A stretch of DNA of 64,000 nt, from assembly GCA_905178155.1 (NCBI GenBank), contig CAJINV010000005.1, positions 5,002,256 to 5,066,255 on the forward strand. Reading direction: 5' to 3'. Every line of letters begins with the position of its first letter. Position 1 is the stretch's first letter. The translations under genes were made by a program, and so were the position numbers. This document shows positions 1 to 64,000 of the stretch, one piece after another. The notes below the pieces were generated by a model. The model did no database searches, was not told the origin of the DNA, and worked only from the letters and a program-made list of their open reading frames with translations. The DNA comes from Amoebophrya sp. A120 (lineage: Eukaryota; Protista; Dinoflagellata).

Positions 1-3
1 TCA

Positions 4-226
4 TATGAGAGTGCACAACTCCCCCTCCTCCTCATTTGTCATGCAAAATCCCAAATCCATATCCAGCTGCTGCCTTGTAGCACTGTTTGCATGACAAATT
101 CTGGAAGCCCAAACAGTACTACACTGGGCACATAGATTTGTCATGCATAGGCTCCATGTGCGCTGGTGTTTGTATTGCTGTTCATGCCATACAAATGGGG
201 GCGAGGGGGAGTTGGGCACTGTCATA
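4..226. mobile_element. Introner 1, family B
   Basis: TIR tatgagagtgcacaactcccc...ggggagttgggcactgtcata; DR (..)tca/cctca, left copy cut by the window edge. Confidence 0.85.
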
Positions 227-3200
227 CCTCACCGGAGCGTCCCACAACGAGATTGGGCGGATCCAGAGTCTGTTCGTCCCGATGGTGGTTATGAAAGTGC
301 ACAACTCCCCCTCCCCCTCATTTGTCATGCAAAATGCCTAAGTTACGCCGGGGTTCTTGGCAATGTTTGCATGACAAGTTCTAGCAGCCCAAATAGCACT
401 ACAATCCTGCCCAAACTTGTCATGCAAAACCGGTAATCTTGCTGATGCTTGTATTGTTGTTCATGCAATACAAATGAGGGGGAGGGGGAGTTGTGCACTT
501 TCATGGTGGTGAAGGGAAAAACGGAAGACGCGGCAAGTGATGGCCTCGCGAAGCAGTTTTTACTGAAGATTGGGGAGAATCTGGCGGATGAGCTGCAGAT
601 CACAGACAGTGCGAAATATCCTCAGACCTTCACCGCTGACTTCGCCGATCCGGTCGCCCAGTCGATCGCGAAGATTGAGTTACAAAACGCTTTACCACCA
701 CCCCCACACGACGCCGAAAAATGCGGCTACGACCCGAACCCCTCGATTCTTCCGGGCAAGTGGTTCCTCTACATGTACAAGCACGGACAGAATAAAGCGG
801 CCAACGGCTGGAATGACATGCGGTTTGGGAAAAACGTTAATGGGTTAAATTCCCTCTGCCCGCACCCGACAAGTGGGAATGCGAAAATGTCGGAAGCGTT
901 ATTCGACGCGTCCTGCTTCACGGAGCTCCTCGCGGTCGGTGGCACCGGCGCGTGGGCGAAAATCTGGCGCAAGGACGGGGCTTGTATCCCCGCGAAAGAC
1001 GCGTTTGGCGAGGGAGAGAAGCGGACGAACGGCTTCTACAGCATTGAGTTTTCCACGGGCTACAAGGGCGACGCGATTGTGAAGAACTTGTACCACGGAC
1101 CCTTGTTCAATGACATCAATACGGGCTCCATGTGGATGTGGCGTTGCAACAGCAAGAACGCCGACGGAAGCAGCTGCGCGCAGTACGACAGTGGCAGTGT
1201 GCTTGGGAGCCAATACGACAACAGCCCGGGTTCCTGGGGCACGCTGTTGACTTCCCTCCCCGGGCGGTATGCCCCGGGGGGCGAAAAGGGGAGAGGGACT
1301 GACGGGTATAGCTGGTCCTGGTACGGAAAGCAAACGACGGTCGCGCAAAGTCTCGATGAACCCACGACGGCCACAACGACCACGACGTTGTTCAAGAAGG
1401 TGAAGAGAGTGCTGGATGGCTGTGTCGCGGCCTATGACTTCGAGGAAGATGCCGCGGCGCATCCGGGAACAGATGCGGCGGTGTACAAGTCGACAGGTAT
1501 TTCCTCCTCCGGCGTCCCGACCGTCGCGCAACCGCTTGTGTGCGCGGGGAACCAGAAGAACAGTAAGGAGACCCTGAAAACGAGGGTGGGCACCGGCGGA
1601 GAGTACAAATCGTTGCTCTTCACCCGGTATTTACAGGAGGGCGGGTACTGCAGCGGCCCGGCCTTTGACATGCCACAGGATGACGAGAGCCGGACCGTGG
1701 TAGTTTGGTTCAAGCCGAAGATCGGGCCCGCGTATCACACCCCGGTTGGGAACGAGGAGTCGGCCACGTCCGGGCCGGTGGCCTACGGGAACGGGATTCC
1801 GGGCCAGGGTTGCAATTCCCACTTCGCGTTGTGGATCAGCGGGTTTGGGGGGAATTTGTACTTTGGACTAAACTGCCAGGACCCGGGTAATGCGAAGGAC
1901 GGGAACACGGGGTTTAACCCGGTGAAAACCAACCTCCCGGAGAGCTGGATCCACGTGGCGTTCAGCTACAATAAGAGCACCAACAAGTTCAAGCACTGGT
2001 ATAATGGCGGTTCTATGAAGGAAAAAACCGCCAGTATGCCCCCGCACACGCGAACGTGGAACTTCGGGAAAAATTGCATCGGTGCGGGCATCCAAACCTG
2101 CTTCACTGACTTGCAACGCGCAGACGGGTCTTTTCTTTCAACCAGCAAGGCCTTTTTCGCCGGCGAGATCGCGTCTTTCCACATCTACGACCGGGAATTG
2201 TCCGAAACCGAAATCAACTGGGTCAAGTCCCACACCGGGCCGGGTGGGGCGCCGGAGTACATCTTCTCGTCCGGGTTGGAAGCAACCAGAGGTCTCGTAT
2301 TGTGAGGAAAAATCCCCCCTCCCCATATCGAAAGCGAAATTTGTGTTGCTGTATTTGAGTACACAAATCGCATTTGTCTTGCTGGAGAGGACTGCGGACC
2401 CATATCAAGCCTGAGTAGAGAGGCTTTGACTTAGGCGCTTAGCATGAAAAGCCTCCGTGATGTTGGCTCAACAGCATGACAAACCGCCTCCATAATGGGG
2501 CGGAAGCTGCTGCCCTTGTCTTCTTGCAACACAAACGTGATTTGTGACCTCAAATCAGCAACACAAATTTTCGAAAACCTACCGCTTCAATATGGGGAGG
2601 GGGGATTTTTCCTTGCGATATCTCGCGGGGTTGGGGAGGTTCCCCATGGAGCAGCTGCTGGGAAATTCCGAGCTGTATGCAATGCAAAAGCATCGTACTA
2701 GTATAAATTGCATTACAAATTGGCCCAGCACTACAAATCGAATTTGTAATGCTGATTTACCTTGAGAAAGAGATTTGTAATGCATAAATGCAATTACTAC
2801 GAGTACGATACTTTTGGACAGGATAAGCTGATCGCTTCGACGATAACGACATCGACGACAGCTGGTACTACAACTTCCGCCACCTCCGGCTACTGCGACT
2901 TCCACGAGAAATGCACGGACGTTAACAGCAAGTTCCACTGCTTTGAACGCGTCCAGCCTATGGGAGACACGAAGCACCCTGGATTTACGAACACCCCGCA
3001 GAACGTTTTGGACTATGAGAGTACTGGTACTATCCCGCCAACCTACGGCTTCGAGATGACGTTTGCAAATTACGGGAAGATGAAAGGAATCTGCGGACAA
3101 TACATCAACGGCGTGGAGAATTATTTGCCCGATCTGAGGGGCAAACTCACGGGGAACAAGTTTGATTGTATGAACATCTGCAGAAACATGGGCGACATCT

Positions 3201-6200
3201 GCCGCGGCACCACCGGCCACAAATACGGGAACGGGAACGACGGGACAGAGTCTGATGGAAAAGTGTTCTGCGAGTTGGAGCTTCAAACCTGCGACGTGCC
3301 GGCGGAAGTACTCGCAAAAGTTCCAGCGGAATTGCACGAATTGAATTGCAATCCGAATGTCCCCGACCGGAAACACGACATCTACCATGTGAGATCCAGT
3401 GGCAACCAGCCGGAGTGCTGGCGGAAGGTAATCTACCAAGCAGGGCCGAATTCCGCTTTGAATTCCTACGAGTTCCCGTTTGAGGATTTCGTGACGAAGA
3501 GCTACAGCACCGACGTAAAGTACTATGCACTGCAAATACGTCTGGGTCTGGAAAGCTGGCCTTTGTAATGCATATCTTGCATTCCTGAAAATAAAATCTG
3601 TGTTGCACGAGCGGCAAAAGAGCAGCTTGCTTTGTCATGCAGAGATGCAATTTGTAATGCGTGCTAGAGATCAGAAAGCGTTCAAAAAACCAGTCATGCT
3701 TGGCTGCCATTGCAATCGTTTCACTCATGCGCGTTTCAGCATCACAGGTTTCCAGACCCAGACGTTTTTGCAGTTGATAAGCACACGCGTGACACCATTC
3801 CGAAATCCAACCCGTCCTGGGCGTGGAAGGACTCGCTGGGGTTCAGCGAAGAGTATAAGAAAATCGCGAAAACCGCACCTATATGCTCTGCAAAAGTATC
3901 GTACTCGTACTAATTGCAATCATGCATGGCAAATCTTGTTTCTTAGCCAAATCAGCATTACAAAGAACTCCATTTTTCCTTCTGAAAAAACTTGTATTGC
4001 AATTTACACTACGTACGATGCTTTTGCAATGCATACACTAAATCCTCCTTCGATTGCACCCGGGACGCGATCTTGGTGTACAGCCAGAACACCGATTTCG
4101 CCAACAGTAAGGTGACGCAAAAGGCCTGTCTGCAGCTCTGCACGGAGTTTGGAAAGGGGCTGTGTGCGGGAGCGGTCCACTTTTATGATGAGACAGCAGA
4201 AAAATCAAAGTGTTTCCTTATAAAACAGTCTAAATCCGATGTTCTTCTCGGCGCGACGCTCCATTCCGTCGGGAAAAGCGCTTTGGGTTCCTACTGCGAG
4301 GACAACGGGACACATCGGTGCTTCTTCCGGGATGTGAACACCGATTTTGCGCTGGATGCGCCCAACGGGATTAGCAACATCTTTCTCCCGATCTTGAACA
4401 GTGAAAGTACTACGGAAGAGCAGTTTTTGACAAAATTGCTCCCAGTAGCGACTGATGCGACTTTACTACAACAATCCTACCCGTCGAACCACGTGGAGTA
4501 CTTCTACCAGCACTTGGGTCACGGGAAATGCGTGTATCAAATGCAAAAATGTCTGGGTCTGGAAAGTTGCAAGATTTGTGATGCATCTCGCGGACCACAC
4601 TCATGGTCTGTAATGCAGACAGAAGCATCACAGACTTTTTGAGACCTTCCTCATGCCTCTTCCGCATGAGAAATTCGCCTTTTGCCTAGCGAGAATTGGG
4701 TAACTGTTGGCGTTCATGCAGCACAGATTTTCTCGCGATCCAGATTTCGCATGACAGGCTTCATTCTTCCAGACCCAGACATATTTGCAATGCATAGCGT
4801 GCACACGCAGAACAAACGGGAAAACTTGTCCAAACTAACGCGAACTTTCGTCGCCGGGAAAGACTCGGTAGATGGGAAAATCACGAAGGAATTAGCGGAG
4901 GATATGACCCGCTCAGACGTTACAATCTCAAACGTTACATCAATAGAATATGGGAATCTGTGATGCAAGAGTGCATGATCTAGCCAACTCTCATACGATT
5001 GCGCATGACAAGTTCCGGAGCCCCAAACCCACCTGAAATCCGGCAAGATTTGTATTGCGAAAAGCCCAATTCTCTCTGCGTTCCTCATGCTCTTCATGCA
5101 AATAGAATTTCCGGATTCTATTGTAACGTTTGAGATTGTAACGTTTGAGCAGGCCATAGAAGAGTGCTTCTATGAACTGCAAAAGTATCGTATTCGTATA
5201 AATGCATGACAAACCTCCTCAGCATGAGAAATGAAATTTGTAATGCGAATCTACCTTAAGAAAAAGATTTGTAATGCGTGACTGCAATACGAGTACGATA
5301 CTTTTGCACAGGATAGCTTCAACTTCTGCGACATTCTCGCGCTGAGGAACAACCTATGCATTGCAAAAGTATCGCAGTCTGGAAAAGTGGAACTTGTGTT
5401 GCATGTCTTGCATTCCTGAAAAATCTGTATTGCACAGCCACGAAGAAAGGCGCCGCTTTTTCGTCCTGCAAAAACGCAGTTTGTCATGCGTGCTACGCAT
5501 CAGACGGCGTCAAGTATACTTGTCATGCTTGGCTGCGCTTGGGAGCGCCAGCAGTCTTTTATCCATACTGTAGCATCACAGGTTTCCAGACATCCAGGGA
5601 TATTTGCATTTGATACAACCCGTTCAAACACACGACTGACGCCACTCTTCACGAGCTCGTCGGGAAGGGGAGTTTATGGAATGCAAAAATGTCTGGGTCT
5701 GGAAGAGTGCAAACTTGTGATGCTGCGTTTGGATTCCAAAAAAATGTGTATTGCATGAGCAGCAATAAAGGGAAGGCAATTTTTGCTATGCGGAGAGGGC
5801 ATTTGTCATGCGGACTAGGCATCAAGAAGCCCTCACAAAATCTGTGATGCTGGGGCATGCATCACTGACGTCATGGCTCACGCAAAACGTGCATGACAAG
5901 CTTCAGAATCTTCCAGACCCAGACATTTTTGCAATGCATACAGTTACATCGGCCACGAGCTGTGCAAGGGCGTGGAATATCAAATGCAAAAATGTCTGGG
6001 TCTGGAAGGACAAGGATGCGAACTTGTGATGCATACTTGGAGGACACAAAAATCTGTCATGCTTGACAGCAAAGGGAGCTCCTTTTCCTGTCGCCGAAAG
6101 AAGGCGTTTGTCATGCCGATTAAGCATTGGAAAGCCGTCTCAAAATAACCTGTGATGCTAGGGCTTGCATGGCACACCTTCTGTGTTACGCAGACACAGC

Positions 6201-9200
6201 ATCACAAACTTCAGCAATCTTCCAGACCCAGACACTTTTGCAATGTATATGGAATTTACAGGGACTTCTTGTAGTTTGATTGTCGATATGGATTGTAAAA
6301 ATATCTGGGTCTGGAAGGTTGGAACTTGTAATGCTAGCTTTCCATACCTAGACAATCTGTATTGCATAACCAACAAAAGTCGCAGCCTCTTTTGTCATGC
6401 AAAAACGCAGTTTGATTGTCATGCGGATTGCCTATGAGAAAGCGTTTTGGGAAGTTGTCATGCTGGGCTGCATTCGGAAGCGTTTTCATCATGGACATAT
6501 TAGCATCACAAGTTTCCAGACCCAGACATTTTTGCATTTGATTGTGGACCGCATGGATTACAAGACGATGCTCAACTACTACTTCAAGCAGGACGACTAT
6601 GGAGGCGTCAGGATTGAAATCGGCAAAGTTGAAATAATTTCTCACGCGTAAATTGCAAGGCATGAAGTGCCTCTCTTGCAGGGGCGGCAGGTGAGGCCGA
6701 CCGTCAGCCTGTTTGGGATCTGCGGCAGAGCTGCTCAAGTAGCATGACAAAAGACGCCTTCTGTCATTAAACAGCATGACAAACTGGATTTAGACGGTGT
6801 CGATATTTGTCATGCGCCGCTTGAAAATTTGGCTTCCAACTGGTATCGATTTTCTGCAGTGCAAGTTACTTCAACTTTGTCGATTGCAAATCTGACACTC
6901 CCATAACGACATTGCGACTTCCACCGTCACAATCACCTCCACGGTACGGCCGAACTACCCACCAGATTTCTACTACGGGGTCTACAGCTTCGGGGACGAT
7001 TTCCAGTACAAGATGGAGTTCGGGTACGATTCGATCGAAGCGCCGAATCAGGCGGACAACGCGCATTTAGCCTCCTGTACCGGAGATGGTTGTAAACAAT
7101 CCTGTTTCGCCAAGCAGTACAAGTCTTCATTCGAGCGCGGCTACACTTCAAAGCATCCGGATTACGTATCAATTGCAAAAATGTCTGGGTCTGGAAGATT
7201 GCAAGTGTGTCATGCTTGTCTGGCATGAGTCGAGAATCTGTGTTGCATAGACACCGAAAGGCCCTCTTACCTGTCATGCAAAAACGCAGGTTGCCATGCG
7301 GAATACGTAAGACATAGGAGCCAAAAAATTTGTCATGCGTAGCTGCGTATAATTGCAGTGCTTCTACCATTCACTTTTAGCATCACAAGTTTCCAGACCC
7401 AGACATATTTGCAATCCATATTGCGGCATGATCCACCACACGTATAACCCGAATGGTATGAAATGCAAAAGCATCGTACTAGTACAAATCGCATTACAAA
7501 TGTGCTCAGCATTAGAAATGGAATTTGTAATGCGTATTTGAATTGATAAAAAAATTTGTGTTGCATGACTGCAATTACTACGAGTACGATGCTTTTGCAC
7601 AGGATAAATGGTGGCAGTCTGCAAGATTATGTGGACATGAACTCGGACCACCGTGTATCCTGAGCAAAAACGTCCCCACCCCAGAGTTGTAATGCAAATC
7701 TGCATGCTCAGAATGTTTCTCATGCGGAGTTCCATGAGAAGCAATTTCTAGTCGTGTTCTGCAATTTGCCATGCTCGAATGTGCATGATATACTAGATCT
7801 GTTACGCTGCTGAGCTAGCTGAAACAGCACTACGCTACGACTCCAAATTTGTCATGCAAAACAGCCAAAACTTGTGGATTTGTCTAGCCGGTTCCCCATC
7901 TTGACTATGGGGTGGGGACGCTTTTACATAGGATACCGCCACTACGACTGGAGTTGGCGGCGCCACCCGAAGGTGGCGGCGCTGTACGACAAGGAGGACG
8001 GCGACAATACCAACGCGAATAATTATGACGCGAATCCATCGTCGGAAGATGATAAGGGGTGCTTACTACCCGCAGGTCGGTTCGACGGGGTCGCGGGGCA
8101 CAAGAACGCACTGCTCGCGGCGGACAACGTGCACTGCCCGGGGGAGAACAAGGTTTCCATGGTGCAACTCGCGAAGGGCTGCACGGTGGATCTTTGCCCC
8201 ACCTCCCCCACCCCGACGGACACGAGTAAATCACATTGCTTCCGCGTCGGCCCCGGGCCGGGCGTGTTTAAGGCGAGTGACGGGCATTTCGATTCGGACA
8301 CCATGTACGAAGCGCATGTGTATTGTCACATTAACAATCCGGAAGGGATATCAAATGCAAAAATGTCTGGGTCTGGAAGATTCCTACATTTGTCATGCGT
8401 GTCTGACATGACTCAATAATCTGTGATGCATGGGCACGAAGCGGTCCTCTTTTCTGTCATGCAAGCGCGCAGTTTGCCATGCGGAACACGCAACACGTAG
8501 GAGCCCAAAAAATTTGTCATGCTTGGCTCCGTATTGCAGTGGAACTCTCGTTCACTTGTAGCATCACAAGTTTCCAGACCCAGACATTTTTACATTTGAT
8601 AAGGGACGATGAGTTCTTTTGCGGACAATGCGGACGGTTCTGGGGCGAAGTGCTCCCTCCCAATTGGGCGGTACGGGAACAGCTGGGTCAGCACGTGCCA
8701 CCCAAACAAAATCCTGACGGGAGACATCCACGTTGGATCAGATCCTCTACACGGACCGTGTCCGGTGAATGATAAAGTTTCCCAAATTATCATGTGTAAA
8801 AACGTCCCCGCACCAGAGTCAAGATGGTAAATCTGCTACACAAATCAGCCAGCTCTGGCTGTTTCGCATGACAAGTTTGTCCTTGTAGCGGAATCCTGTT
8901 TAGGTAGTTCAGCAGCATCACAGACCTAGCTTATCATGCTGGTTATAGCATCACAAATCCCAAGACACGACTAGAAAACGCCTCTCATGGGGCTCAGCAT
9001 GAGAAACTTTTTTGGCATGCAGATTTGCATGACAACTCTGGGGTGGGGGCGTTTTTGCTGAGGATACAGATCGTGGTGAAAGCCGGCTGTGCCGCGCACG
9101 TGTTCCAGCACTGCGACGGGATCTCGGGAAATTCTATCGCGAGGAGAAATCCCCTCTCCCCATATTGACAAGGTACGTTTTCGAAAATTTGTGTTGCTGA

Positions 9201-57200: not shown

Positions 57201-60200
57201 CCCCTTCGCGAACCCGGCGCTTTCAGCCTATTTGTCCGGGGAGAAAACGGCGAAGCGGGATATGTTTTTGACAAAACTAACCCAGACTTTGAAAACCGAA
57301 ATCGTTTCCTACAAACAGTCTCTCGATCCAGCAACAGCGGGCACTGTGGCGGAAAAAGCTCTAGCGGAATCGAATCTCGATCTCGCTTTGTCGCCCCCGA
57401 CGGGCACAGCAGAGCAGGTTGCAGGCTCGTCGTTGACAATTCCACCGACTGCGAAGGTTGCGAAGACTTCTGCTTTCGCTGAAACCAAGTTGTCGATCGA
57501 TTTAGGAACGAACGACCCGACGAAGCGGCCGGATAAAGACACGGTGAGGTCTATGGTACAGAAGGCGGCGGCAGAGTCGCTGCAGGCGAAATTCCCGGAT
57601 ATCACGATCACGCCGGAGATGGTCATGGTTCGATTCCCGCCCAAGGCGGAGTCCGATACTGCGGTTACTTCGACGGAAGAGTTTTCGGTGTCCTTAGCGC
57701 TGCCGAACGTGAACACCATCCCGGCGGCAGAGCAGACGAAATTGCTGGATAGTCTGTCCTCTACATCTTCCGAAGCGTCTTCCTTAACATCTGCCATGGC
57801 GAGTACGGTGCAATCTTTAGGTGTGGAGAACGTCGCGACCGAGATCAAAGAACTTCCCCCGCAGCCGGACGGCACGCCGACGAAACCGCAGTTAACTGGG
57901 ACGGACGGCGGTTCTGTGGACTTATCCCCAACTGAGCCGCCGCCCGGCGCTCCGAGCTTGAACTTCATCGAAGTCCCAGCTTCCATCGTCACCGCGACGA
58001 AAACGGGGATTTCTGATACCCAGATGCAGGGCTTATTGAAGAAAGCGTTGGAGAAAACCGCACTGAAAGAATTGTTCGAGAAGATCGGCGCCGTCCCTTC
58101 TGGCCCGAATAAGACCGAAACAGTGACCGATGTTACTACTGGACAAACGAAAGAAGTGCAGAAACTCGACGCGAGTAAGATCTTCGGAATTGTCATGGAG
58201 CCTTCTACACCAGTAGCTGCCGGTTCCACCGCGACGAAGAGGAATTTCAAAATGACCATTCAGACCCAGGGCTTGACTGCAACACAACTTGGGTTAGTGA
58301 TGGCGGCTTTAGCCGACGCGGCGGACGATTCTGTCTCTACAAAAGCGGATGAATTCGCTTCTGCGATTAAGGAGGAAGTAGTGAAGGAATTGCAGGCGAA
58401 TCCGATTTCTTCTGTCGGCGATCCGGTGAGCGAGATCACAGCCGGGAAGATGGAAACAGCAAATAAAAGACCACAACTTTCCTCTCAAGTCGAAACGAAG
58501 ATCAGGCTGGAGATCAAGAACCAAATTTCCGGCGCACCGCTCAAAGAGGACATCGTGAAGAAGATGCCGATTCAGCTGGCTTTCGCGAAAGCGCTGGAAA
58601 AGGTAACCGGGACGAAGTTGCTGCCAGAACAGGTCGCAGTTCTAGATGTGGCGGACGCGGTGACGATCGGCGCCGACGGCTCAGTGGATATCAACGTTGG
58701 CGTTGCTTCTTCTTCTCCTTCAATTCTGTCCGCGTTGACCGAGGGGGATGGGAACAAGGTGTTCGCGAACGTGTTGCAGGAGATGATTGGCACCGCGATT
58801 ACCGAAGCGGCGAGTAACAACGAGCTGGACCCGTCTGTACCATTATTAGTAACAACCGACACTTCTGCTGGCGTTGTCGCCCCGACGGTGAATACCCAGT
58901 ATGTCGCGACGCAGGTCGGTTTGCCGGCGGTTGCGGCGGCGGCGAAGAATTCTGGGGAGTTAGCGCCGACAATGAGAACAGCCGCGGCGTCGACCGCGGA
59001 GGCGGTTGTCGGTACTACTGGCCCATTACAGGTCGACAGATCCAACGTCGTTGTCGGGTACACGCCGGGAGACGGTTCTGACGCTAGTGGTTTTTCTGCT
59101 ATGGTCTCTGTCCCGGTGAAGTCGATTGTTTCTACCTCAAAGGCGCCGGTGGATCCGCTTGCGGCAACAGCTGCAGCAGCAGCTCCTGCAACACCACCTG
59201 CGAGTGGAGGTACAACAACACCGCCAACAACCACTCCCAGCACTGGCGCGACGACACCAACCGTCGGCGAAACGGCAGTGACTTCCGTCGCTCAAACCGC
59301 GGGATCACTCCTAGACGCACTGAAATCTGCGATGGCCCAGGACTCTCCTGATTTCGCCGCGCCACTTGCGCAGAAGTTGGAAGTCCTTGGCGTGAAGATG
59401 CAGGAGAACGTCGCGGCGGACACACCACCGTTACCAGTCGAGCAGCCGCCAGTGGAGTCCGTTCCGGCCGTTGCAGCTTCTACGGAGAAATCGCAACTGA
59501 CTTATCTCGAAACCTCCATGTCTTTCGTCGACTACATTGAGGAGCCGCCAAAGACAATCACGAAACCGGACGGGACGGTGGAGCAAGTCGATGTTTCGCC
59601 TTCCACAAGCAATAAAAACTTCCTGCAGAAAGAGATCAAGCAGAAGCTTTCCTCAACGACTGAACTGACGAAACTTGCGAAGGAAGCGATTGCGGAAGTT
59701 TTGGTCGAGTCAAGAACAGACCCGGTCACTGGGGAGAAGATCGAAACCGCGGCGCCATTGTTGATTGAAACTTCTGATGGCAGTTTTGAAGTCAAGCCGT
59801 CGGACATAGCGGTGGTTATCCGCGAAGTCCCCGCGACGGTTACGAGGACATTCTCCAACGGCACAACAGTTGAAGTGCAAGTCATGAAGAAGGAGATGTC
59901 ACTGTCTGTGCAGGTGCGGGAAACGGAAGACTCGTCTGAAGCACAAAGACAACTCCTCGCGTTGTTTTCGAAATTGAACCCGAAGGCAAACTCGTTTCAG
60001 GATGCTGTGCAAACCAGGGTGATGGAACTCGCAGTGGAGAAGACGGTTGAGGAGAAGTTGGTGGATACTTCATTACCTCCAGCAGAACAGGCGAAGATCA
60101 AGCAGCAATTCACACAAGAATCGTTAGCGACAATCCAAGCGCCGGAGAACAGAGACAGCTTCCAAACCGCGGCGAAAGTCGAGAAGGAAATTGCATCTGC

Positions 60201-63200
60201 AGCAAGTACCGTCGGTGGGCAAGCGGCGTTTGAGACACCGGGGCTCTTGCCTGCGACGACGGAAAAGGCGAAGGAGGCGACGACGAACGCCTTGAAACGG
60301 GCGGTGAAGGAGACACTGAAGGAAATCGCGGGTCTGGAATTCGTATGCATTGCAAAAGTATCGTACTCGTGCTGATTGCAATCGTGCATGACAAACTGCG
60401 GTCTTAAGCGAAATCAGCATGACAAGCCCCATTTTTCCTTTTGAAAAAATTTGTATTGCAATTTCCACTACTCCTACTGCGATACTTTTGCAATGCATAA
60501 TCCGAACTGGAGCACGTTTCTGTCAAACTCGACCCGGGCACTGCGGAGATCGGCGCACCGTCGTTCTCCTTCTCCATCCCCTCGCAGGGCAACGTCGCGA
60601 CAGCGCTCTTCTCTGAAGGAAGTACGAAAACCGCTAGTTTTACTGATTTGCTAAAGAAAAAGATCAGCAAGCAGTACTTCCAGGCAGCTTCTGATGAAAC
60701 CTCAGATTCCGCCGTTGAGGGGCTGCCGAAGGTGGATGTTTCAAATGTTGACACGACCCTACCCATCGAGGAGCAGGAAGCGTCTTTGATCACGAAACCG
60801 GTGCAGATGACCGGCACGGCGAAACAATCGAGATTTACAGAATCGACTCTGTCCATCGGCCTGGCTTCTCCCGAGCAGGGTGGGCTATTGCCGAAATCGG
60901 AGGACATGCTGAGATCTCTAATCGTGTCCGCGACGATTGATAGCGTGAAAGCACAGGCGAACTTCGACTTAACGCCATCCGATGTGACAGTAGTTTTCGC
61001 CGGGGATGTTGCCGCGATTCTGGAAATGGTTTCCAAGAACGCAACTTTAGCGACCAATTTGGACGCTACCGTGATTGTGGAAGTCGCTGACTCCCCGACG
61101 CCGGATCCGACGACCAAAACGGTCGAAAATTCCGGTGCGAAGGTGCAGCAGATTGTGGATCAATTGACGACACAAGTCACCGGCGAGGACGGAAAGCCGA
61201 AAACGGTTCCTTCAACCGCTTTTGTCACGAAGATCCAGACGGAATTAGAGTCCTTTGGGTTAAAAGTTCCGAACCCACCAGACCCGGACCCGAAGAAGGG
61301 AATGGAGCAATCCGCACCAGCCACAACCGAAGATTCTTGGGTGCCACCGGTGCCGGAGAAACCTCTGTCGTTAGGTGGGGAGAATCCAAACATCGAGCCC
61401 ACGCCTTTGATTGAAACGAACATCAACGTGAATCTCGGTTCGTCCTCCAAGGGTTTGACAGACAACACCGTGCAGGAAATGATAAGAAACGCAGTTGCGG
61501 AATCTTTGGTCGCAGAATCGACCGTCGGAGAACAAGCCGGACAGCCGGCGCAACCAGTGGTTCCCGGATTCCTCGATTTAGTCCTGGAATCCGCTGGGTT
61601 TTCAAAGCAGGAACAACAAGCGATGACAAAGGTTGAGAAAGCAAAAAATGCGGAGAAGTTCATGGAAAGTCAAATTTCCGTGTTTTTCACCGACAAAAAA
61701 CCGAAAGACAAAGCTGGTGGCGAGCAGCGCGCTTGCTCCGTTGTGATCTCCGCGAAGTTGGCGAATTCCACTGTCGTGCTGGATTTGCTGCAGGCTTTAT
61801 CCAAGGAATCTTCCTCCACTAACGATGAGAAGTTCGAAGAAACGTTCACGGCCGCGCTGAAGCAAACCGCATTGCAGACACATTCTATTCCACCTTCCGA
61901 CATTGTCACCGACGTCACCCAGAAATCAGCGAAACCGGTGGAGCAGATTTCCACGAACATCCAGTTCGACTTCGATATTGTCCCCAAAGACCCGACAACC
62001 ACGCCAGTGAACATGATTTCCGACAATACTATCGCCGAAGCGAAGGTTTCGGTCGAGGAAATGAACATGATGTTGCAGGAGTCTGTCGCGTTTGCGTTGA
62101 ACGGTACAAGGGGGATGTCGCTGCAGGCTTCCCAAGTCGCGGTCAACATTTTGGATGACCTCAGTTCCATCATGACGACCGACCCAGCTGATCCGAGTAA
62201 GAAACTCCTACCGTTGGTGCAGAAGTTGAACAAGGGGCAGCCAAATGAATCGTTGAACAGCTTGCTTTCCAACTTGAATTTCACGATCTCCATCCCAGTG
62301 GCGTCTGACACGAACGAGATGATGCATTTGGCGGACGAAACGGCTGGGAACAAGATGTTTTTGAAAGCGGTCCAGAATTCGATGGCGTCGCAGATTCAGA
62401 CATCGAATTTTATCCCAGAAGTGGTAAAACAGGATTTGAAAGTCGAGACGAAAGAGTTGAAAACCACGAGTTCTGTCCCATTAGCCCAGTCGTTCACCGA
62501 AGCGTTTATGGAGATTGACTCGCCGATTTCCGATGAGGAATTGATCGCGACGATCAAGTATCAAATGTAAAAATGTCTGGGTCTGGAAGAATGCACGTTT
62601 GTCATGCTTGTCTGGCATGACTCTTAAATCTGTCATGCGCGTTACGCTAGAGCTCCGTTTTTCTGTGATGCAGAAGCGCAGTTTGTCATGCAGAATAGGC
62701 AACACCTAGGAGCTCAGAAACTTGTCATGCTGAGCCAGCATTTGTAGCCTCATCATGAGACGCCACCCAGCATCACAAGTTTCCAGACCCAGACACTTTT
62801 GCACTTGATATCAAAGGCGCTGCGGCGGATGCGGTGGACACTTTGGTTCCGAACATGCCGAAGGGGGTGGAGCCGAAGGACATCACGGTGTTGATTTTGA
62901 AAACCGAGGGAAACAAGAGGGAGATTGTCGTGCAGACACCAGTGCAGAAAACGTTACCAATTCAAACGGTGGAAGTGGTTGAAGAGGTGACGGTGACGAA
63001 TCCTGATGGCAGTACCACAGTCACACAAGTGACGAAACAAGTAACTTCGGTGAATGTCACTGCGGTTGCGACTGCGGCAGCCGAGGCGGAGTACAAGGGT
63101 TCTGCGAACGAGGTTGCGAACAAAATGTCCGCGGCTAGCTTCATGGTCCCGTTTTCGACGCGTATGGAGGTGAACTTAGATTCTATGTTCACTTTAGACG

Positions 63201-64000
63201 CTCTTCCGGAGGAAACGCAACCACCGGCAGTCACCGAACCCGCGAAAACCGAACAGCCGGAGGAATTGCCAATAGTGACGGTTGAGGGCGAGATGTCTGT
63301 GGAAATCAAACCCGCGGATCCGAGCAAAACCTTGACTGACAACCAGCTCACCGATCTGGTGAAGGCGGCGGTGGCGAGCACATTAGGTGCGACGACGTTT
63401 GATCCGAAAACCGGGAAGAACACCAAGCCGATGTTCCAGTTGTCGGGCGGGTCGGTTATCAGGTCGGATCAGATCGCGGTGACGAAGTTGGACGGTGGGT
63501 TGCTAGATCCGGACAAGCACACATTCAAAATCGCGGTCCACGGAAACCAGTTGTCCGCCGCGGAGGTTTCGGAAGCGCTGGCGCTGTTGACGAAGCCGCA
63601 GGAAGAGGAGAAACCAGCTGCGCCCGCTGCAGGTCCAGGTGCACCAACAACCGGTATCAAATGTAAAAATGTCTGGGTCTGGAAGAGTTGGAACTTGTGA
63701 TGCAAACTCTGGAACAGACAAAAATTTGTGTTGCATGAGCGCCAAAAGCTGCCCACTTCTTGGCACGCATGTGGCAAGTTTCTCATGCGGGACAGGCATC
63801 ATGAGGCGTGCTCAAAACCTGTGATGCTTTTGCCTGCATCAGACACCATTTGCGTGATCCGAAATATGCATGACAAATCTACAAATCTTCCAGACCCAGA
63901 CACTTTTGCATTTGATAACCGGCACCGGCACTGCAACTGCAGCCCCGCCGAGAAAGGACGTTGTGACAGAGAGGCAGCTGAACTTCCAATCGTTAGTCCA
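227..64000 (+). CDS. Partial giant multi-exon gene (>~16,000 aa in window), putative surface/adhesin/mucin-like protein, open at both ends
   Basis: All long + ORFs join in frame after removing each TIR element plus one 5-bp DR. Examples: ...VPMVV|KGKTED; TRGL|AGLGRFPMEQLLGNSEL|IASTITT; LAEE|CF|NFCDILALRNN|PFKH. No exonic stop codon was found. Confidence 0.85.
290..505. mobile_element. Introner 2, family B
   Basis: TIR tatgaaagtgcacaactcccc; right end reads atg; DR gtggt. Confidence 0.9.
506..2297 (+). CDS. Exon: Trp/Cys/Gly-rich domain copy 1, Thr linker, LamG-like domain
   Basis: ORF 449..2305 trimmed to the flanking elements. Confidence 0.85.
1418..2230 (+). other. LamG / concanavalin A-like (pentraxin-like) domain
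   Basis: Motifs AAYDFEE, RTVVVWFKP, WIHVAFSY...KHWYNG, IGA and FAGEIASFHIYDRELSETEI follow the Laminin_G_3 pattern. Confidence 0.8.
2298..2620. mobile_element. Introner 3, family D
   Basis: TIR tattgtgaggaaaaatcccccctccccatat; DR tctcg. Confidence 0.9.
2676..2825. mobile_element. Introner 4, family E
   Basis: TIR tatgcaatgcaaaagcatcgtact; DR agctg. Confidence 0.9.
2826..3523 (+). CDS. Exon: Thr linker plus Cys-rich (PAN/Apple-like) module
   Basis: ORF 2762..3568; CMNICRNMGDICRG...FCEL. Confidence 0.8.
3524..3779. mobile_element. Introner 5, family A
   Basis: TIR tat..tgcaaa..gtctgggtctggaa; DR agtac/agcac. Confidence 0.9.
3882..4035. mobile_element. Introner 6, family E
   Basis: E-type TIR; DR accta/cacta. 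Confidence 0.85.
4036..4534 (+). CDS. Exon: PAN/Apple-like module
   Basis: ORF 3992..4642; ACLQLCTEFGKGLCAGAVHF...KCFL. Confidence 0.8.
4535..4796. mobile_element. Introner 7, family A
   Basis: TIR tatcaaatgcaaaaatgtctgggtctggaa; DR gcgtg. Confidence 0.9.
4903..5158. mobile_element. Introner 8, family G (single copy in window)
   Basis: TIR tatgacccgctcagacgttacaatctcaaacgttaca; DR gagga/gaaga. Confidence 0.85.
5159..5170 (+). CDS. Micro-exon (12 nt including both DRs; 7 nt net)
   Basis: gaagagtgcttc between two elements; required for the in-frame LAEECFNFC. Confidence 0.75.
5171..5315. mobile_element. Introner 9, family E
   Basis: E-type TIR; DR gcttc. Confidence 0.9.
5355..5615. mobile_element. 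Introner 10, family A with E-like left end
   Basis: Left end tatgcattgcaaaagtatcgcagtctggaa; right end ttccagacatccagggatatttgcatttgata; DR caacc. Confidence 0.9.
5675..5940. mobile_element. Introner 11, family A
   Basis: A-type TIR; DR gagtt/cagtt. Confidence 0.9.
5978..6249. mobile_element. Introner 12, family A
   Basis: A-type TIR; DR tggaa. Confidence 0.9.
6287..6543. mobile_element. Introner 13, family A
   Basis: A-type TIR, right end reads att; DR gtcga/gtgga. Confidence 0.9.
6598..6905. mobile_element. Introner 14, family F
   Basis: TIR tatggaggcgtcaggattgaaatcggcaaagttgaa; DR acgac. Confidence 0.9.
7167..7420. mobile_element. Introner 15, family A
   Basis: A-type TIR; DR ttacg/ttgcg. 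Confidence 0.9.
7457..7606. mobile_element. Introner 16, family E
   Basis: E-type TIR; DR aatgg. Confidence 0.9.
7656..7935. mobile_element. Introner 17, family C
   Basis: TIR tatcctgagcaaaaacgtccccacccc; DR ccgtg/ccgcc. Confidence 0.9.
7936..8348 (+). CDS. Exon with beta/gamma-crystallin-like motif
   Basis: ORF 7874..8419; ENKVSMVQLAKGCTVDLC. Confidence 0.75.
8349..8601. mobile_element. Introner 18, family A
   Basis: A-type TIR; DR aggga. Confidence 0.9.
8788..9066. mobile_element. Introner 19, family C
   Basis: C-type TIR; DR caaat/cagat. Confidence 0.9.
9135..9478. mobile_element. Introner 20, family D
   Basis: D-type TIR; DR aattc. Confidence 0.9.
9591..9870. mobile_element. Introner 21, family A
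   Basis: Degenerate left TIR (starts tac); DR ggcct. Confidence 0.85.
9871..10276 (+). CDS. Exon: PAN/Apple-like module
   Basis: ORF 9899..10426; SDCGRACLTLGKDCLGY...PCIL. Confidence 0.75.
10277..10557. mobile_element. Introner 22, family C
   Basis: C-type TIR; DR aactg. Confidence 0.9.
10634..10919. mobile_element. Introner 23, family C
   Basis: C-type TIR; DR agtga. Confidence 0.9.
10978..11241. mobile_element. Introner 24, family A
   Basis: A-type TIR; DR actga/actgt. Confidence 0.9.
11242..13769 (+). CDS. Exon: two PAN/Apple-like modules plus a degenerate super-repeat segment
   Basis: Frame is open from 11242 into ORF 11492..13777; FCYGTCNKFSSCAGISF and RCLYTCELK...CKAVVYRSSDETCVL. 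Confidence 0.85.
13770..14051. mobile_element. Introner 25, family C
   Basis: C-type TIR; DR gaaag. Confidence 0.9.
14411..14672. mobile_element. Introner 26, family A
   Basis: A-type TIR; DR ggcgg/ggtgg. Confidence 0.9.
14716..15022. mobile_element. Introner 27, family F
   Basis: F-type TIR; DR cctct. Confidence 0.9.
15023..15727 (+). CDS. Exon including the start of Trp/Cys/Gly-rich domain copy 2
   Basis: ORF 15031..15789; PGKWELYMYKHG...LNSLCPHPTSGNAKM. Confidence 0.85.
15728..15981. mobile_element. Introner 28, family A
   Basis: A-type TIR; DR acact/gcact. Confidence 0.9.
16026..16288. mobile_element. Introner 29, family A
   Basis: A-type TIR; DR tgggt. Confidence 0.9.
16606..16860. 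mobile_element. Introner 30, family A
   Basis: A-type TIR with variant right end; DR ctccg. Confidence 0.9.
16861..18400 (+). CDS. Exon, Ser/Thr/Ala-rich repeat region
   Basis: ORF 16868..18454 trimmed. Confidence 0.85.
18401..18707. mobile_element. Introner 31, family F (inverted relative to 14 and 27)
   Basis: F-type TIR; DR tcacc. Confidence 0.9.
18708..19279 (+). CDS. Exon
   Basis: ORF 18725..19324; in-frame join LPIT|PASVVIR. Confidence 0.8.
19280..19541. mobile_element. Introner 32, family A
   Basis: A-type TIR; DR cggaa/cagag. Confidence 0.9.
19632..19910. mobile_element. Introner 33, family C
   Basis: C-type TIR; DR cgaga/tgaga. Confidence 0.9.
19911..20742 (+). CDS. Exon with mucin-like Thr-rich tract
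   Basis: ORF 19861..20754; TTATPTTTT...TTSTTSTSTTTTSSTTTTT. Confidence 0.85.
20743..21010. mobile_element. Introner 34, family A
   Basis: A-type TIR; DR aaacg. Confidence 0.9.
21193..21340. mobile_element. Introner 35, family E
   Basis: E-type TIR; DR tcgct. Confidence 0.9.
21387..21644. mobile_element. Introner 36, family A (variant TIR at both ends)
   Basis: TIR tatcaaaagtaaaaatccctggatgtctgg; DR aagga. Confidence 0.9.
21718..22039. mobile_element. Introner 37, family D
   Basis: D-type TIR; DR atact/attct. Confidence 0.9.
22228..22506. mobile_element. Introner 38, family A
   Basis: Degenerate A-type TIR; DR ggagc. Confidence 0.9.
22507..23102 (+). CDS. Exon with Thr-rich linker
   Basis: ORF 22520..23158 trimmed. 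Confidence 0.8.
23103..23420. mobile_element. Introner 39, family C
   Basis: C-type TIR, right end reads aga; DR ggaca. Confidence 0.9.
23421..24503 (+). CDS. Exon: Cys-rich, PAN/Apple-like modules
   Basis: ORF 23551..24558; GECFNLCDAMGADCQGISM...DCFLK. Confidence 0.85.
24504..24756. mobile_element. Introner 40, family A
   Basis: A-type TIR; DR tggca/gggca. Confidence 0.9.
25134..25386. mobile_element. Introner 41, family A
   Basis: A-type TIR; DR agggg. Confidence 0.9.
25387..27103 (+). CDS. Exon: three PAN/Apple-like modules
   Basis: ORF 25339..27114; CKELCEKDVVCTGYQY, ECAEVCDLLGADTCSGFD, WCMLLCNRMSKCTRI. Confidence 0.85.
27104..27252. mobile_element. Introner 42, family E (degenerate)
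   Basis: E-type TIR; DR eroded (gattc/gcctt), but removing 5 nt still restores the frame. Confidence 0.8.
27253..28566 (+). CDS. Exon, super-repeat region
   Basis: ORF 27302..28615; LPMRLESLGV landmark. Confidence 0.85.
28567..28879. mobile_element. Introner 43, family D
   Basis: D-type TIR; DR tccga. Confidence 0.9.
28880..29394 (+). CDS. Exon, super-repeat region
   Basis: ORF 28874..29548 trimmed. Confidence 0.8.
29395..29547. mobile_element. Introner 44, family H
   Basis: TIR tatgcaatacaaatttcccgtacatgtacaaa; DR ggtac (the only element readable as GT-AG). Confidence 0.85.
29548..31352 (+). CDS. Exon, super-repeat region
   Basis: ORF 29563..31395 trimmed. Confidence 0.85.
31353..31632. 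mobile_element. Introner 45, family C
   Basis: C-type TIR; DR aaggg. Confidence 0.9.
31633..34078 (+). CDS. Exon, super-repeat region
   Basis: ORF 31591..34086 trimmed. Confidence 0.85.
34079..34357. mobile_element. Introner 46, family C
   Basis: C-type TIR; DR tcacc. Confidence 0.9.
34427..34635. mobile_element. Introner 47, family I
   Basis: TIR tatcacaagaaaaaactgtttcactgt; DR tcgct. Confidence 0.9.
34636..35159 (+). CDS. Exon, super-repeat region
   Basis: ORF 34612..35199 trimmed. Confidence 0.8.
35160..35315. mobile_element. Introner 48, family H
   Basis: H-type TIR; DR acgat. Confidence 0.9.
35316..37260 (+). CDS. Exon, super-repeat region
   Basis: ORF 35196..37322 trimmed; SSWLP landmark. 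Confidence 0.85.
37261..37512. mobile_element. Introner 49, family A
   Basis: A-type TIR; DR gaaag. Confidence 0.9.
37560..37768. mobile_element. Introner 50, family I
   Basis: TIR tatgcaagaaaaaaactgtgt; DR cttgt. Confidence 0.9.
37905..38113. mobile_element. Introner 51, family I
   Basis: I-type TIR; DR aggct. Confidence 0.9.
38114..39699 (+). CDS. Exon, super-repeat region
   Basis: ORF 38059..39837 trimmed. Confidence 0.85.
39700..39945. mobile_element. Introner 52, family A (inverted sibling of 13)
   Basis: A-type TIR; DR ctacc. Confidence 0.9.
39946..41841 (+). CDS. Exon, super-repeat region
   Basis: ORF 40008..41888, open upstream to the element. Confidence 0.85.
41842..41991. mobile_element. 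Introner 53, family H (inverted sibling of 48)
   Basis: H-type TIR; DR cacgg. Confidence 0.9.
42046..42260. mobile_element. Introner 54, family B
   Basis: B-type TIR; DR ctcgt. Confidence 0.9.
42261..45765 (+). CDS. Exon, super-repeat region
   Basis: ORF 42174..45770 trimmed. Confidence 0.85.
45766..45994. mobile_element. Introner 55, family B
   Basis: B-type TIR; DR ttccg/ctccg. Confidence 0.9.
45995..47586 (+). CDS. Exon, super-repeat region
   Basis: ORF 45963..47624 trimmed. Confidence 0.85.
47587..47838. mobile_element. Introner 56, family A
   Basis: A-type TIR; DR ggatc. Confidence 0.9.
48066..48284. mobile_element. Introner 57, family B
   Basis: B-type TIR (left end starts tac); DR tccaa. 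Confidence 0.9.
48285..49959 (+). CDS. Exon, super-repeat region
   Basis: ORF 48160..50028 trimmed. Confidence 0.85.
49960..50221. mobile_element. Introner 58, family A
   Basis: A-type TIR; DR tcgtc. Confidence 0.9.
50222..51639 (+). CDS. Exon, super-repeat region
   Basis: ORF 50236..51684 trimmed. Confidence 0.85.
51640..51904. mobile_element. Introner 59, family A
   Basis: A-type TIR; DR aagag. Confidence 0.9.
51905..56533 (+). CDS. Largest exon (4.6 kb), about one full super-repeat
   Basis: ORF 51754..56544 trimmed. Confidence 0.85.
56534..56687. mobile_element. Introner 60, family E
   Basis: E-type TIR; DR accgc/accac. Confidence 0.85.
56688..60343 (+). CDS. Exon, super-repeat region
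   Basis: ORF 56707..60375 trimmed. Confidence 0.85.
60344..60499. mobile_element. Introner 61, family E
   Basis: E-type TIR; DR attcg/atccg. Confidence 0.9.
60500..62558 (+). CDS. Exon, super-repeat region
   Basis: Open frame from the element into ORF 60648..62570. Confidence 0.85.
62559..62810. mobile_element. Introner 62, family A
   Basis: A-type TIR; DR tcaag/tcaaa. Confidence 0.9.
62811..63654 (+). CDS. Exon, super-repeat region
   Basis: ORF 62834..63700 trimmed. Confidence 0.8.
63655..63917. mobile_element. Introner 63, family A
   Basis: A-type TIR; DR accgg. Confidence 0.9.

Follow-up and report, generated by a model that had tools for sequence, protein, structure and literature searches.

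In the dinoflagellate Amoebophrya sp. strain A120, a parasite of algae, 65% of the introns are described as non-canonical. Its introner elements are described as having inverted repeats that start with TAT, seven nucleotides (nt) and AAA, as being flanked by direct repeats (DRs) of 3-5 nt, and as forming a hairpin that joins the exon ends (Farhat 2021, PMC7789003; this class is also summarised in PMC11453091). How the tens of thousands of non-GT-AG introns of Amoebophrya are removed has been an open question since 2021. Strain A120 is reported to keep 83 of 89 spliceosomal proteins together with U2, U4, U5 and U6, but U1 was not found there, nor in strain A25 (PMC7789003); in strain Kv, both GT-AG introns and U1 are reported to be present (PMC12005148). 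The non-conventional introns of Euglena follow the layout N3-CDG ... CH'G-N5-6, in which the motif and the spacer lengths are both required (Nomura et al. 2025, PMC12501133). The locus considered here is a 64,000-nt stretch of the A120 genome (assembly GCA_905178155.1, contig CAJINV010000005.1, positions 5,002,256 to 5,066,255, forward strand), hereafter the window, in which 63 elements interrupt a single long reading frame. Removal of an element with five further nucleotides is exact at every junction covered in frame by contigs or annotated proteins, and all nine junctions at which the DR is informative fit a cut 3 or 4 nt into it.

The elements themselves and the hairpin proposal are already published for strain A120 (PMC7789003); the fixed 3-4 nt position and the apparent conservation of the terminal triplets are the additions made here. 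No published statement of either was found in a search outside which most subscription journals lay, and the supplementary figures of Farhat may show part of this.

Exact removal from one reading frame

The elements lie between positions 4 and 63917 of the window (Table 1). Of these, 58 came from a scan that looked for TAT...ATA ends resembling each other as inverted repeats, four from a relaxed scan of the gaps, and one (29395-29547) from inspection by hand; because the left DR of #1 lies beyond the window edge, junction counts refer to 62 elements. They are 145-344 nt long (mean 245) with 44% G+C, and comprise eight multi-copy families and one singleton. Seven of the eight families are present in both orientations (e.g., 14 and 13 copies for family A), and both orientations are removed; the family letters were assigned in this analysis and need not equal those of the initial annotation. 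In run X4, the depth of bins containing elements exceeds that of exon-only bins by factors of hundreds to thousands, in keeping with elements that are repeated in the genome.

Excision of all 63 elements, each with one DR, leaves 48,223 nt, of which forward frame 3 consists of 16,073 codons without a stop. The other two forward frames of the spliced sequence hold 463 and 787 stops, and the reverse frames 241-605. GT-AG introns are unnecessary for this open frame, and keeping any single element breaks it (retention is tolerated in 0 of 62 cases). That the frame is clean after 63 removals argues that no element with decayed ends has been overlooked.

Joined sequences come from two sources. Contigs of three runs from one sample (X1-X3), whose RNA status is a guess, were aligned to positions 9872-15726, a region with six elements (#22-#27), and at all six they skip exactly the element plus 5 nt. 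Two of the eight contig joints (10820-14409 and 11081-14583) link different repeats, with sides of 24 and 21 nt and one contig each, and were set aside. The five annotated A120 proteins that map to the spliced frame show exact removal at all 38 junctions that they span in frame; this coverage excludes #1, #8-13 and #46-63 and thus leaves 24 junctions uncovered. The A120 gene models were built from transcript alignments with BLAT (PMC7789003). The raw RNA run X7 gives 634 reads, each of which matches the stretch only in part, and run X9 gives none; of the listed runs that contain the stretch, none is recorded as RNA.

An empty site looks like a spliced junction, and with X1-X3 only guessed to be RNA, the joined contigs might be DNA, either from excision of the elements in the manner of ciliate internal eliminated sequences or from an allele or strain with empty sites. 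This is very unlikely: among the contigs listed for run X4, which has an even exon depth of 42-53, four run from exon into element (2787-3552, 9841-10305, 11216-13803 and 14996-15530), while X1-X3 are patchy, lack all six elements, and show no letter differences in the listed exon pieces. Joints between repeats predominate in X4, which has at least 3,635 joints, and joined DNA may also occur among them. Next to no probability attaches to a normal spliceosome working with GT/GC-AG pairs close by, at the price of small gains or losses that keep the frame. In-frame pairs of this kind occur within 30 nt at 56 of 62 elements, including five of the six that the contigs skip, but they are unused at 6 of 6 contig joints and at 38 of 38 protein junctions, and the DRs are not enriched in AG.

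Position of the cut within the direct repeat

The initial annotation held that the junctions cannot be GT-AG. Sliding the cut point through the DR indeed allows GT-AG only for #44, GC-AG for #21, #26 and #51, and GA-AG for #36, #38, #39 and #56, exactly as listed and numbered there. Likewise, many DRs provide no AG acceptor (35 of 62 at any register), and all three codon phases are used (17/17/28; chi-square p=0.14). When random exonic 5-mers stand in for the DRs, the expected counts are nearly the same: 2.3 GT-AG against 1 observed, 28.4 with any AG against 27 of 62, and 37.7 with a possible GT or GC donor against 38 of 62. Counts at chance level indicate that the presence of splice signals does not decide where insertions are found.

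The two DR copies are perfect at 42 of 62 elements and differ by 1-3 mismatches at the other 20, distributed over positions 1-5 as 6, 3, 9, 2 and 5. A sixth base matches beyond the DR in 21 and 12 of 62 cases, which is near chance for this 5-nt repeat. All four bases occur at every DR position, so that the junction bases show no sequence preference. The surroundings of the DR show a weak palindromic target preference, with G two bases before it at 28 of 62 sites and C directly after it at 29 of 62 (about 17 and 16 expected; counts uncorrected for multiple positions).

The register is defined here as the number of nucleotides into the DR at which the cut lies. A perfect DR gives no placement, but at 10 of the 20 imperfect DRs the choice changes a residue, and nine of these ten are covered by contigs or proteins. 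For #26, the contigs retain the upstream DR copy at position 3, and for #24 the downstream one at position 5; the proteins concur for both elements and add the limits for #5, #6, #15 and #17 given in Table 1. Predictions for #37, #40, #42 and #61 were noted beforehand, and all three that are covered (#37, #40 and #42) held. The nine informative junctions intersect at register 3 or 4, which fits 9 of 9, and registers 0, 1, 2 and 5 are each ruled out at some junction. Assuming independent, uniform registers, the probability that nine junctions share any register is 0.017. At register 3 or 4 there are no GT-AG and no GC-AG junctions (0 of 62 each) and at most one AT-AC (0 or 1 of 62), which bears out the view that these are not conventional junctions; the cut of at least 3 at #26 also means that its GC-AG register goes unused.

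Registers 3 and 4 are not separable by the proteins, since both position-4 mismatches (#17 and #60) are silent, and codon likelihood is flat across registers (-222.1 to -224.1). BLAT prefers GT/AG-like bases when placing junctions. In Table S4 of PMC7789003, the top A120 intron classes have T as second base in 9 of 9 cases, as register 4 predicts, but this is not counted because most DRs are perfect and the aligner decides such ties. Identity of the DR copies is dispensable: those of #42 match at only two of five positions, and the element is removed exactly. As imperfect DRs are still removed exactly, the DR is best seen as the footprint of the target site, and the rule as a fixed distance from the TAT/ATA ends.

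Slips of reverse transcription across hairpins with direct repeats (falsitrons) are hardly credible as the source of the joints. A hairpin with a short DR is their classic setting (PMC8240250), and all the evidence of removal is based on cDNA. Yet a slip at the stem base would be expected to keep the downstream DR copy, but what is retained at positions 1-3 is the upstream one; furthermore, 63 removals restore 16,073 open codons, and not one retention in 62 is tolerated.

Terminal repeats, predicted stems and candidate machineries

The terminal inverted repeats (TIRs) are 25-30 nt or more in length. In the predicted folds, all 62 scored elements form at least 10 bp between their termini, and 60 of 63 elements have a fold z of -2 or below, compared with 4 of 30 exon controls (20 shuffles each). 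The 30-nt terminal duplexes range from -18 kcal/mol (D2) to -51 (E), with the short families at -18 and -27 and the families with C/G tracts at -40 to -51 kcal/mol; both kinds are removed. In 4 of 28 close neighbour pairs, the fold of lowest energy joins the two elements to each other. The pair #22/#23, for example, folds at -383.5 kcal/mol together versus -226.2 apart (a gain of 157), yet the two are excised separately and the 76-nt exon between them is kept. This suggests that elements fold and are removed while transcription is under way and not from an equilibrium structure, although the product of a joint skip would lose the frame and could be degraded.

The proposal of the initial annotation, in which the geometry of TIRs and DRs sets the splice sites, thus stands in part. 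The folding it called for predicts a terminal stem in every scored element, the stronger ones in the C/G-tract families. However, very high stability is unnecessary for removal, a match between the DR copies is not required (20 of 62 are imperfect, #42 at three of five positions), and the equilibrium fold alone does not choose the right ends. In its strict form, a purely structure-guided removal would have the most stable TIR stem juxtapose matching DRs and let the cut slide anywhere within them. The terminal stems, the low z values and the 42 perfect DRs are in keeping with this, but the exclusion of registers 0, 1, 2 and 5, the exact removal of #42, and the separate removal of one of the cross-pairing pairs (#22/#23) make it unlikely.

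In the TIRs, TAT is found at 121 of 126 ends, and none of 62 elements departs from T1 and A2 at the left end or from A3 at the right end. Positions 4-7, on the other hand, often fail to pair, with 30-49 of the 63 elements paired at each position. Mispairing affects 5 of 189 sites at TIR positions 1-3 and 6 of 189 at positions 11-13, against 25 of 310 DR sites (Fisher test, p=0.018 for positions 1-3 and p=0.003 for both combined). Since the DR copies were the same at insertion and now differ at 25 of 310 sites, the TAT/ATA triplets appear to have been conserved after insertion. The near-invariant pairing box at TIR positions 11-13 lies ten bases in from TAT, about one helical turn, and reads AAA in most families; it may act as a site for the transposase, as a signal in splicing, or in the two roles together.

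The reading to which we lean, with confidence slightly short of even, is that the introner elements are removed as element plus 5 bases by a modified, U1-less U2-type spliceosome whose cuts are measured from the conserved UAU/AUA ends of the predicted stem. Insertion would create the 5-bp target duplication, and the inner TIR (positions 8-30) would pair as the 3' end is transcribed. The stem would then bring the intron ends together in place of bridging by U1 and U2AF, with the loosely paired outer 7 nt remaining readable. The ruler would take the form N1-2, UAU ... AUA, N3-4; its two spacers together are as long as the 5-nt duplication, so that every insertion would be removed without a scar whichever way it is oriented. 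At register 4 the donor would be N-U-A-U-(G/C), which is GUAU with a free first base, U at +2 and A at +3 being invariant. The invariant A located 7 nt before the 3' cut at register 4 (-6 or -7 overall) would be a candidate branch point, with the 3' cut then set by distance. The yeast donor GUAUGU is close to this register-4 sequence. In Yarrowia the branch A commonly lies at a similar distance, 6 nt from the 3' end (PMC13309789), and a U2 spliceosome that deals mainly with non-GT/AG introns is reported in Fritillaria (PMC13326754). The spliceosome is preferred here because U1 is not detected in A120 but is present in Kv, a difference that a separate machine would not explain.

It is also quite possible, though somewhat less likely, that the same ruler is read by a dedicated endonuclease and ligase, which would recognise the stem base and the palindromic triplets, make staggered cuts in the single-stranded flanks, and release circles. 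The layout N1-2-TAT ... ATA-N3-4 parallels that of Euglena, the 3' spacer being the longer one in both; free junction bases suit a measuring enzyme, and an endonuclease and ligase are likewise suspected behind the euglenid introns, which are reported to leave as circles (PMC11282704, PMC12621601). Against this, the 35% of introns that are GT-AG would still need U1, which was found in neither A120 nor A25, and the first exon base shows no purine preference, unlike that of Euglena.

Several points weigh against the spliceosomal ruler. No constraint at all is seen on the first or last base of the intron, in contrast to the restricted ends of Fritillaria introns (PMC7789003), and this is a real difficulty for a spliceosome step. 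Register 3 fits the junctions as well as register 4 does, and the donor there has no GU-like look. The X1-X3 contigs are of low depth (2.6-5.5), come from one sample and are RNA by guess; the #26 skip is seen in one contig; and the gene models may have been built from related RNA, which would make them not independent of these contigs. Contigs and models show the majority form, so that a minor second register would escape notice. The test for selection on the triplets assumes that DR mismatches track time since insertion, but elements with mismatched DRs have no more TIR mismatches than the others, which makes the DR mismatch an imperfect clock. No more than five deviations underlie the sparing of T1, A2 and A3, which was noticed post hoc, and TAT/ATA symmetry is equally expected of transposon ends. 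Compensatory change was not found in family A, either at positions 4-7 (66 versus 65.5 +/- 4.7) or at positions 8-10 (69 versus 66.2 in shuffles); in view of this lack of covariation, the pairing is a predicted one.

A broader form of the spliceosomal reading would make N-UAU ... AUA-NNNN a second splicing code. In this rather doubtful extension, a U1-less spliceosome would take its 5' site and branch point from transposon ends and ignore the junction bases; because the five spacer bases total the duplication, all insertions would be scarless introns, and the Euglena ruler, with spacers of 3+5, would be independent. If a spliceosome does act here, both terminal dinucleotides would be dispensable when a stem supplies the geometry. 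A fixed register makes for sharp tests, namely the 5' end of the excised RNA, the A that would branch, and the particular spacer changes that should abolish splicing. It also suggests re-annotation, as junctions that have been slid within the DR to GT-AG would be miscalled as canonical.

The host gene and its relation to described intron classes

Neither a start nor a stop codon of the host gene lies within the 64-kb window. The encoded protein is rich in A/S/T/V/K/E, and self-comparison in pieces reveals repeats of about 1,400 residues with 25-38% identity from about residue 5,600 on, which is the later two thirds. The product is likely a giant surface or structural protein. One of 15 exons tested against Pfam is above the cut-off, with a Laminin G-like / concanavalin A domain (PF13385, E 4e-7, residues 383-569 of exon 512-2296). 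A Cys/Trp/Gly-rich module of about 200-300 residues occurs in two copies (about 700-1320 and 15420-16570) with 58-68% identity; a related copy is found in another A120 model (P0004), and there are about 30 more distant relatives. Elements #28 and #29 are carried by the second copy and none by the first, so that these insertions are younger than the duplication or were lost from copy 1. Element density falls from about 1.6/kb in 1-25400 (41 elements) to about 0.6/kb in 25400-64000 (22 elements), roughly at the switch from the Cys-rich part to the long repeats. Short tandem duplications are visible by eye within #20 (9228-9270) and #8 (5113-5150).

The public annotation divides this gene into at least five partial models, including GSA120T00010157, GSA120T00010156, GSA120T00010155, GSA120T00010154 and one further A120 model. 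Protein searches recovered them: a query with one exon returned 100% identical proteins named Amoebophrya sp. A120 (GSA120T00010157, GSA120T00010156 and GSA120T00010155), and a further search contributed GSA120T00010154 and the remaining model. For exon 42267-45764, a search for a long protein gave none of 2,042-5,000 residues. The five proteins are identical to the spliced frame except for three residues at DR mismatches and the tail of one model. One of the divisions falls at the 12-nt micro-exon, which has just 2 nt outside its two adjoining DRs. GSA120T00010156 lacks these 2 nt, leaves the frame and ends early; its tail is reproduced if 2 nt are dropped at the micro-exon and #10 is then taken out exactly. 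The loss of these nucleotides looks like a failure of the aligner at the micro-exon.

Table 1. Features of the window. Both DR copies are given where they differ; P numbers denote annotated proteins spanning the junction; cut values are registers in nt.
Feature	Coordinates	Strand	Family	DR	Evidence and remarks
Host gene	1..64000	+			64 exon pieces joined in one frame (16,073 codons or more) that stays open to either edge of the window
#1	4..226	+	E		relaxed scan, frame; left DR cut by window edge, unscored
#2	290..505	+	E	GTGGT	first scan; P0001
#3	2298..2620	+	B	TCTCG	first scan; P0002
#4	2676..2825	+	D	AGCTG	first scan; P0002
#5	3524..3779	+	A	AGTAC/AGCAC	informative, cut at least 3; annotated protein
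#6	3882..4035	+	D	ACCTA/CACTA	informative, cut at least 2; annotated protein
#7	4535..4796	+	A	GCGTG	first scan; P0002
#8	4903..5158	+	H (singleton)	GAGGA/GAAGA	first scan, frame
Micro-exon, 12 nt, between #8 and #9	5159..5170	+			spliced frame, annotated-model comparison
#9	5171..5315	+	D	GCTTC	first scan
#10	5355..5615	+	A	CAACC	relaxed scan; P0002 passes exactly, shifted frame
#11	5675..5940	+	A	GAGTT/CAGTT	first scan
#12	5978..6249	+	A	TGGAA	first scan
#13	6287..6543	+	A	GTCGA/GTGGA	first scan; right end ATT
#14	6598..6905	+	F	ACGAC	first scan; P0003
#15	7167..7420	+	A	TTACG/TTGCG	informative, cut at least 3; annotated protein
#16	7457..7606	+	D	AATGG	first scan; P0003
#17	7656..7935	+	C	CCGTG/CCGCC	informative, cut at most 4; position-4 mismatch silent; annotated protein
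#18	8349..8601	+	A	AGGGA	first scan; P0003
#19	8788..9066	+	C	CAAAT/CAGAT (silent)	first scan; P0003
#20	9135..9478	+	B	AATTC	first scan; P0003
#21	9591..9870	+	A	GGCCT	first scan; left end TAC; P0003
#22	10277..10557	+	C	AACTG	286-nt skip in X1, X2, X3; P0003
#23	10634..10919	+	C	AGTGA	orientation opposite to #22; 291-nt skip in X1, X2; P0003
#24	10978..11241	+	A	ACTGA/ACTGT	269-nt skip in X1, X3; cut at most 4; annotated protein
#25	13770..14051	+	C	GAAAG	287-nt skip in X1, X2; P0003
#26	14411..14672	+	A	GGCGG/GGTGG	267-nt skip in X1; cut at least 3; annotated protein
#27	14716..15022	+	F	CCTCT	312-nt skip in X1; P0003
#28	15728..15981	+	A	ACACT/GCACT (silent)	first scan; P0003
#29	16026..16288	+	A	TGGGT	first scan; P0003
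#30	16606..16860	+	A	CTCCG	first scan; P0003
#31	18401..18707	+	F	TCACC	first scan; P0037
#32	19280..19541	+	A	CGGAA/CAGAG (silent)	first scan; P0037
#33	19632..19910	+	C	CGAGA/TGAGA (silent)	first scan; P0037
#34	20743..21010	+	A	AAACG	first scan; P0037
#35	21193..21340	+	D	TCGCT	first scan; P0037
#36	21387..21644	+	A	AAGGA	sole GA-AG at register 3; P0037
#37	21718..22039	+	B	ATACT/ATTCT	informative, cut at least 3; annotated protein
#38	22228..22506	+	A	GGAGC	relaxed scan; P0037
#39	23103..23420	+	C	GGACA	first scan; right end AGA; P0037
#40	24504..24756	+	A	TGGCA/GGGCA	informative, cut at least 1; annotated protein
#41	25134..25386	+	A	AGGGG	first scan; P0037
#42	27104..27252	+	D	GATTC/GCCTT	alone limits cut to 3 or 4; annotated protein
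#43	28567..28879	+	B	TCCGA	first scan; P0036
#44	29395..29547	+	D2	GGTAC	by hand; GT-AG only at register 1; P0036
#45	31353..31632	+	C	AAGGG	first scan; P0036
#46	34079..34357	+	C	TCACC	first scan, frame
#47	34427..34635	+	G	TCGCT	first scan, frame
#48	35160..35315	+	D2	ACGAT	first scan, frame
#49	37261..37512	+	A	GAAAG	first scan, frame
#50	37560..37768	+	G	CTTGT	first scan, frame
#51	37905..38113	+	G	AGGCT	first scan, frame
#52	39700..39945	+	A	CTACC	first scan, frame
#53	41842..41991	+	D2	CACGG	relaxed scan, frame
#54	42046..42260	+	E	CTCGT	first scan, frame
#55	45766..45994	+	E	TTCCG/CTCCG (silent)	first scan
#56	47587..47838	+	A	GGATC	first scan, frame
#57	48066..48284	+	E	TCCAA	first scan; left end TAC
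#58	49960..50221	+	A	TCGTC	first scan, frame
#59	51640..51904	+	A	AAGAG	first scan, frame
#60	56534..56687	+	D	ACCGC/ACCAC	first scan; position-4 mismatch silent
#61	60344..60499	+	D	ATTCG/ATCCG	informative by mismatch; outside retrieved proteins
#62	62559..62810	+	A	TCAAG/TCAAA (silent)	first scan
#63	63655..63917	+	A	ACCGG	first scan, frame

Among described transposons, the IS3EU and GingerRoot groups, which have integrase-like transposases, share TA..TA termini with the A120 elements, but their target-site duplication (TSD) is usually 6 bp (PMC10045372) rather than 5, and these A120 elements carry no transposase. The integrase-like transposases accord with TIR elements of A120 whose open reading frames resemble long-terminal-repeat integrases (PMC12130899). 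The introners of Polarella, Symbiodinium and Aureococcus are likewise TIR transposons removed with one TSD, some in both orientations, but they recruit GT, GC or GA and AG from the TSD or the element and therefore depend on permissive sites, whereas the A120 TSDs are enriched in neither AG nor GY (bioRxiv 10.1101/2020.10.14.339549). The ends defined for U2 and U12 introns (GT/GC-AG or AT-AC) are not those found at register 3 or 4. In Fritillaria, a U2 spliceosome is reported to act on mostly non-canonical ends, as is proposed here; the Fritillaria ends are restricted and U1 is conserved, whereas A120 has unconstrained junction bases and no U1 that could be found (PMC13326754, PMC7789003).

The comparison with euglenid non-conventional introns drawn in the initial annotation is an apt one. 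In both, the junctions follow no set dinucleotides, palindromic triplets lie a defined distance from each end, the 3' spacer is the longer one, the termini pair (in A120 by prediction), and an origin from miniature inverted-repeat transposable elements is suspected (PMC12501133, PMC11282704). The euglenid triplets are CDG/CH'G with spacers of 3 and 5-6 and a preference for a purine at the exon start, as opposed to TAT/ATA, spacers of 1-2 and 3-4, and no purine bias in A120. Euglenids are an unrelated lineage, and circles are reported in Euglena (PMC11282704, PMC12621601). The A120 elements therefore resemble euglenid introns in layout but are not members of that class.

The class to which they do belong is that of the A120 introners. 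The published TAT + 7 nt + AAA motif is present at 100 of 126 ends (50 of 63 on each side) in the same strain, which identifies the elements as Farhat introner elements; the 5-nt DR, the repeated families and the non-GT-AG removal in the A120 genome agree with this, as does the mean length of 245 nt, the published non-canonical introns being about 240 nt (PMC7789003). The phenomenon is real and was already described in this strain; what is gained here is that its mechanism, an open question, can be tested directly. In the published account, inverted repeats measure 8-20 nt and DRs 3-5 nt (PMC7789003), compared with TIRs of 25-30 nt or more and a DR of 5 nt throughout in the window. The legend of Fig. 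3 there gives the splice position as variable and its border as unknown (PMC7789003); at this locus the position is limited to 3-4 nt into the repeat.

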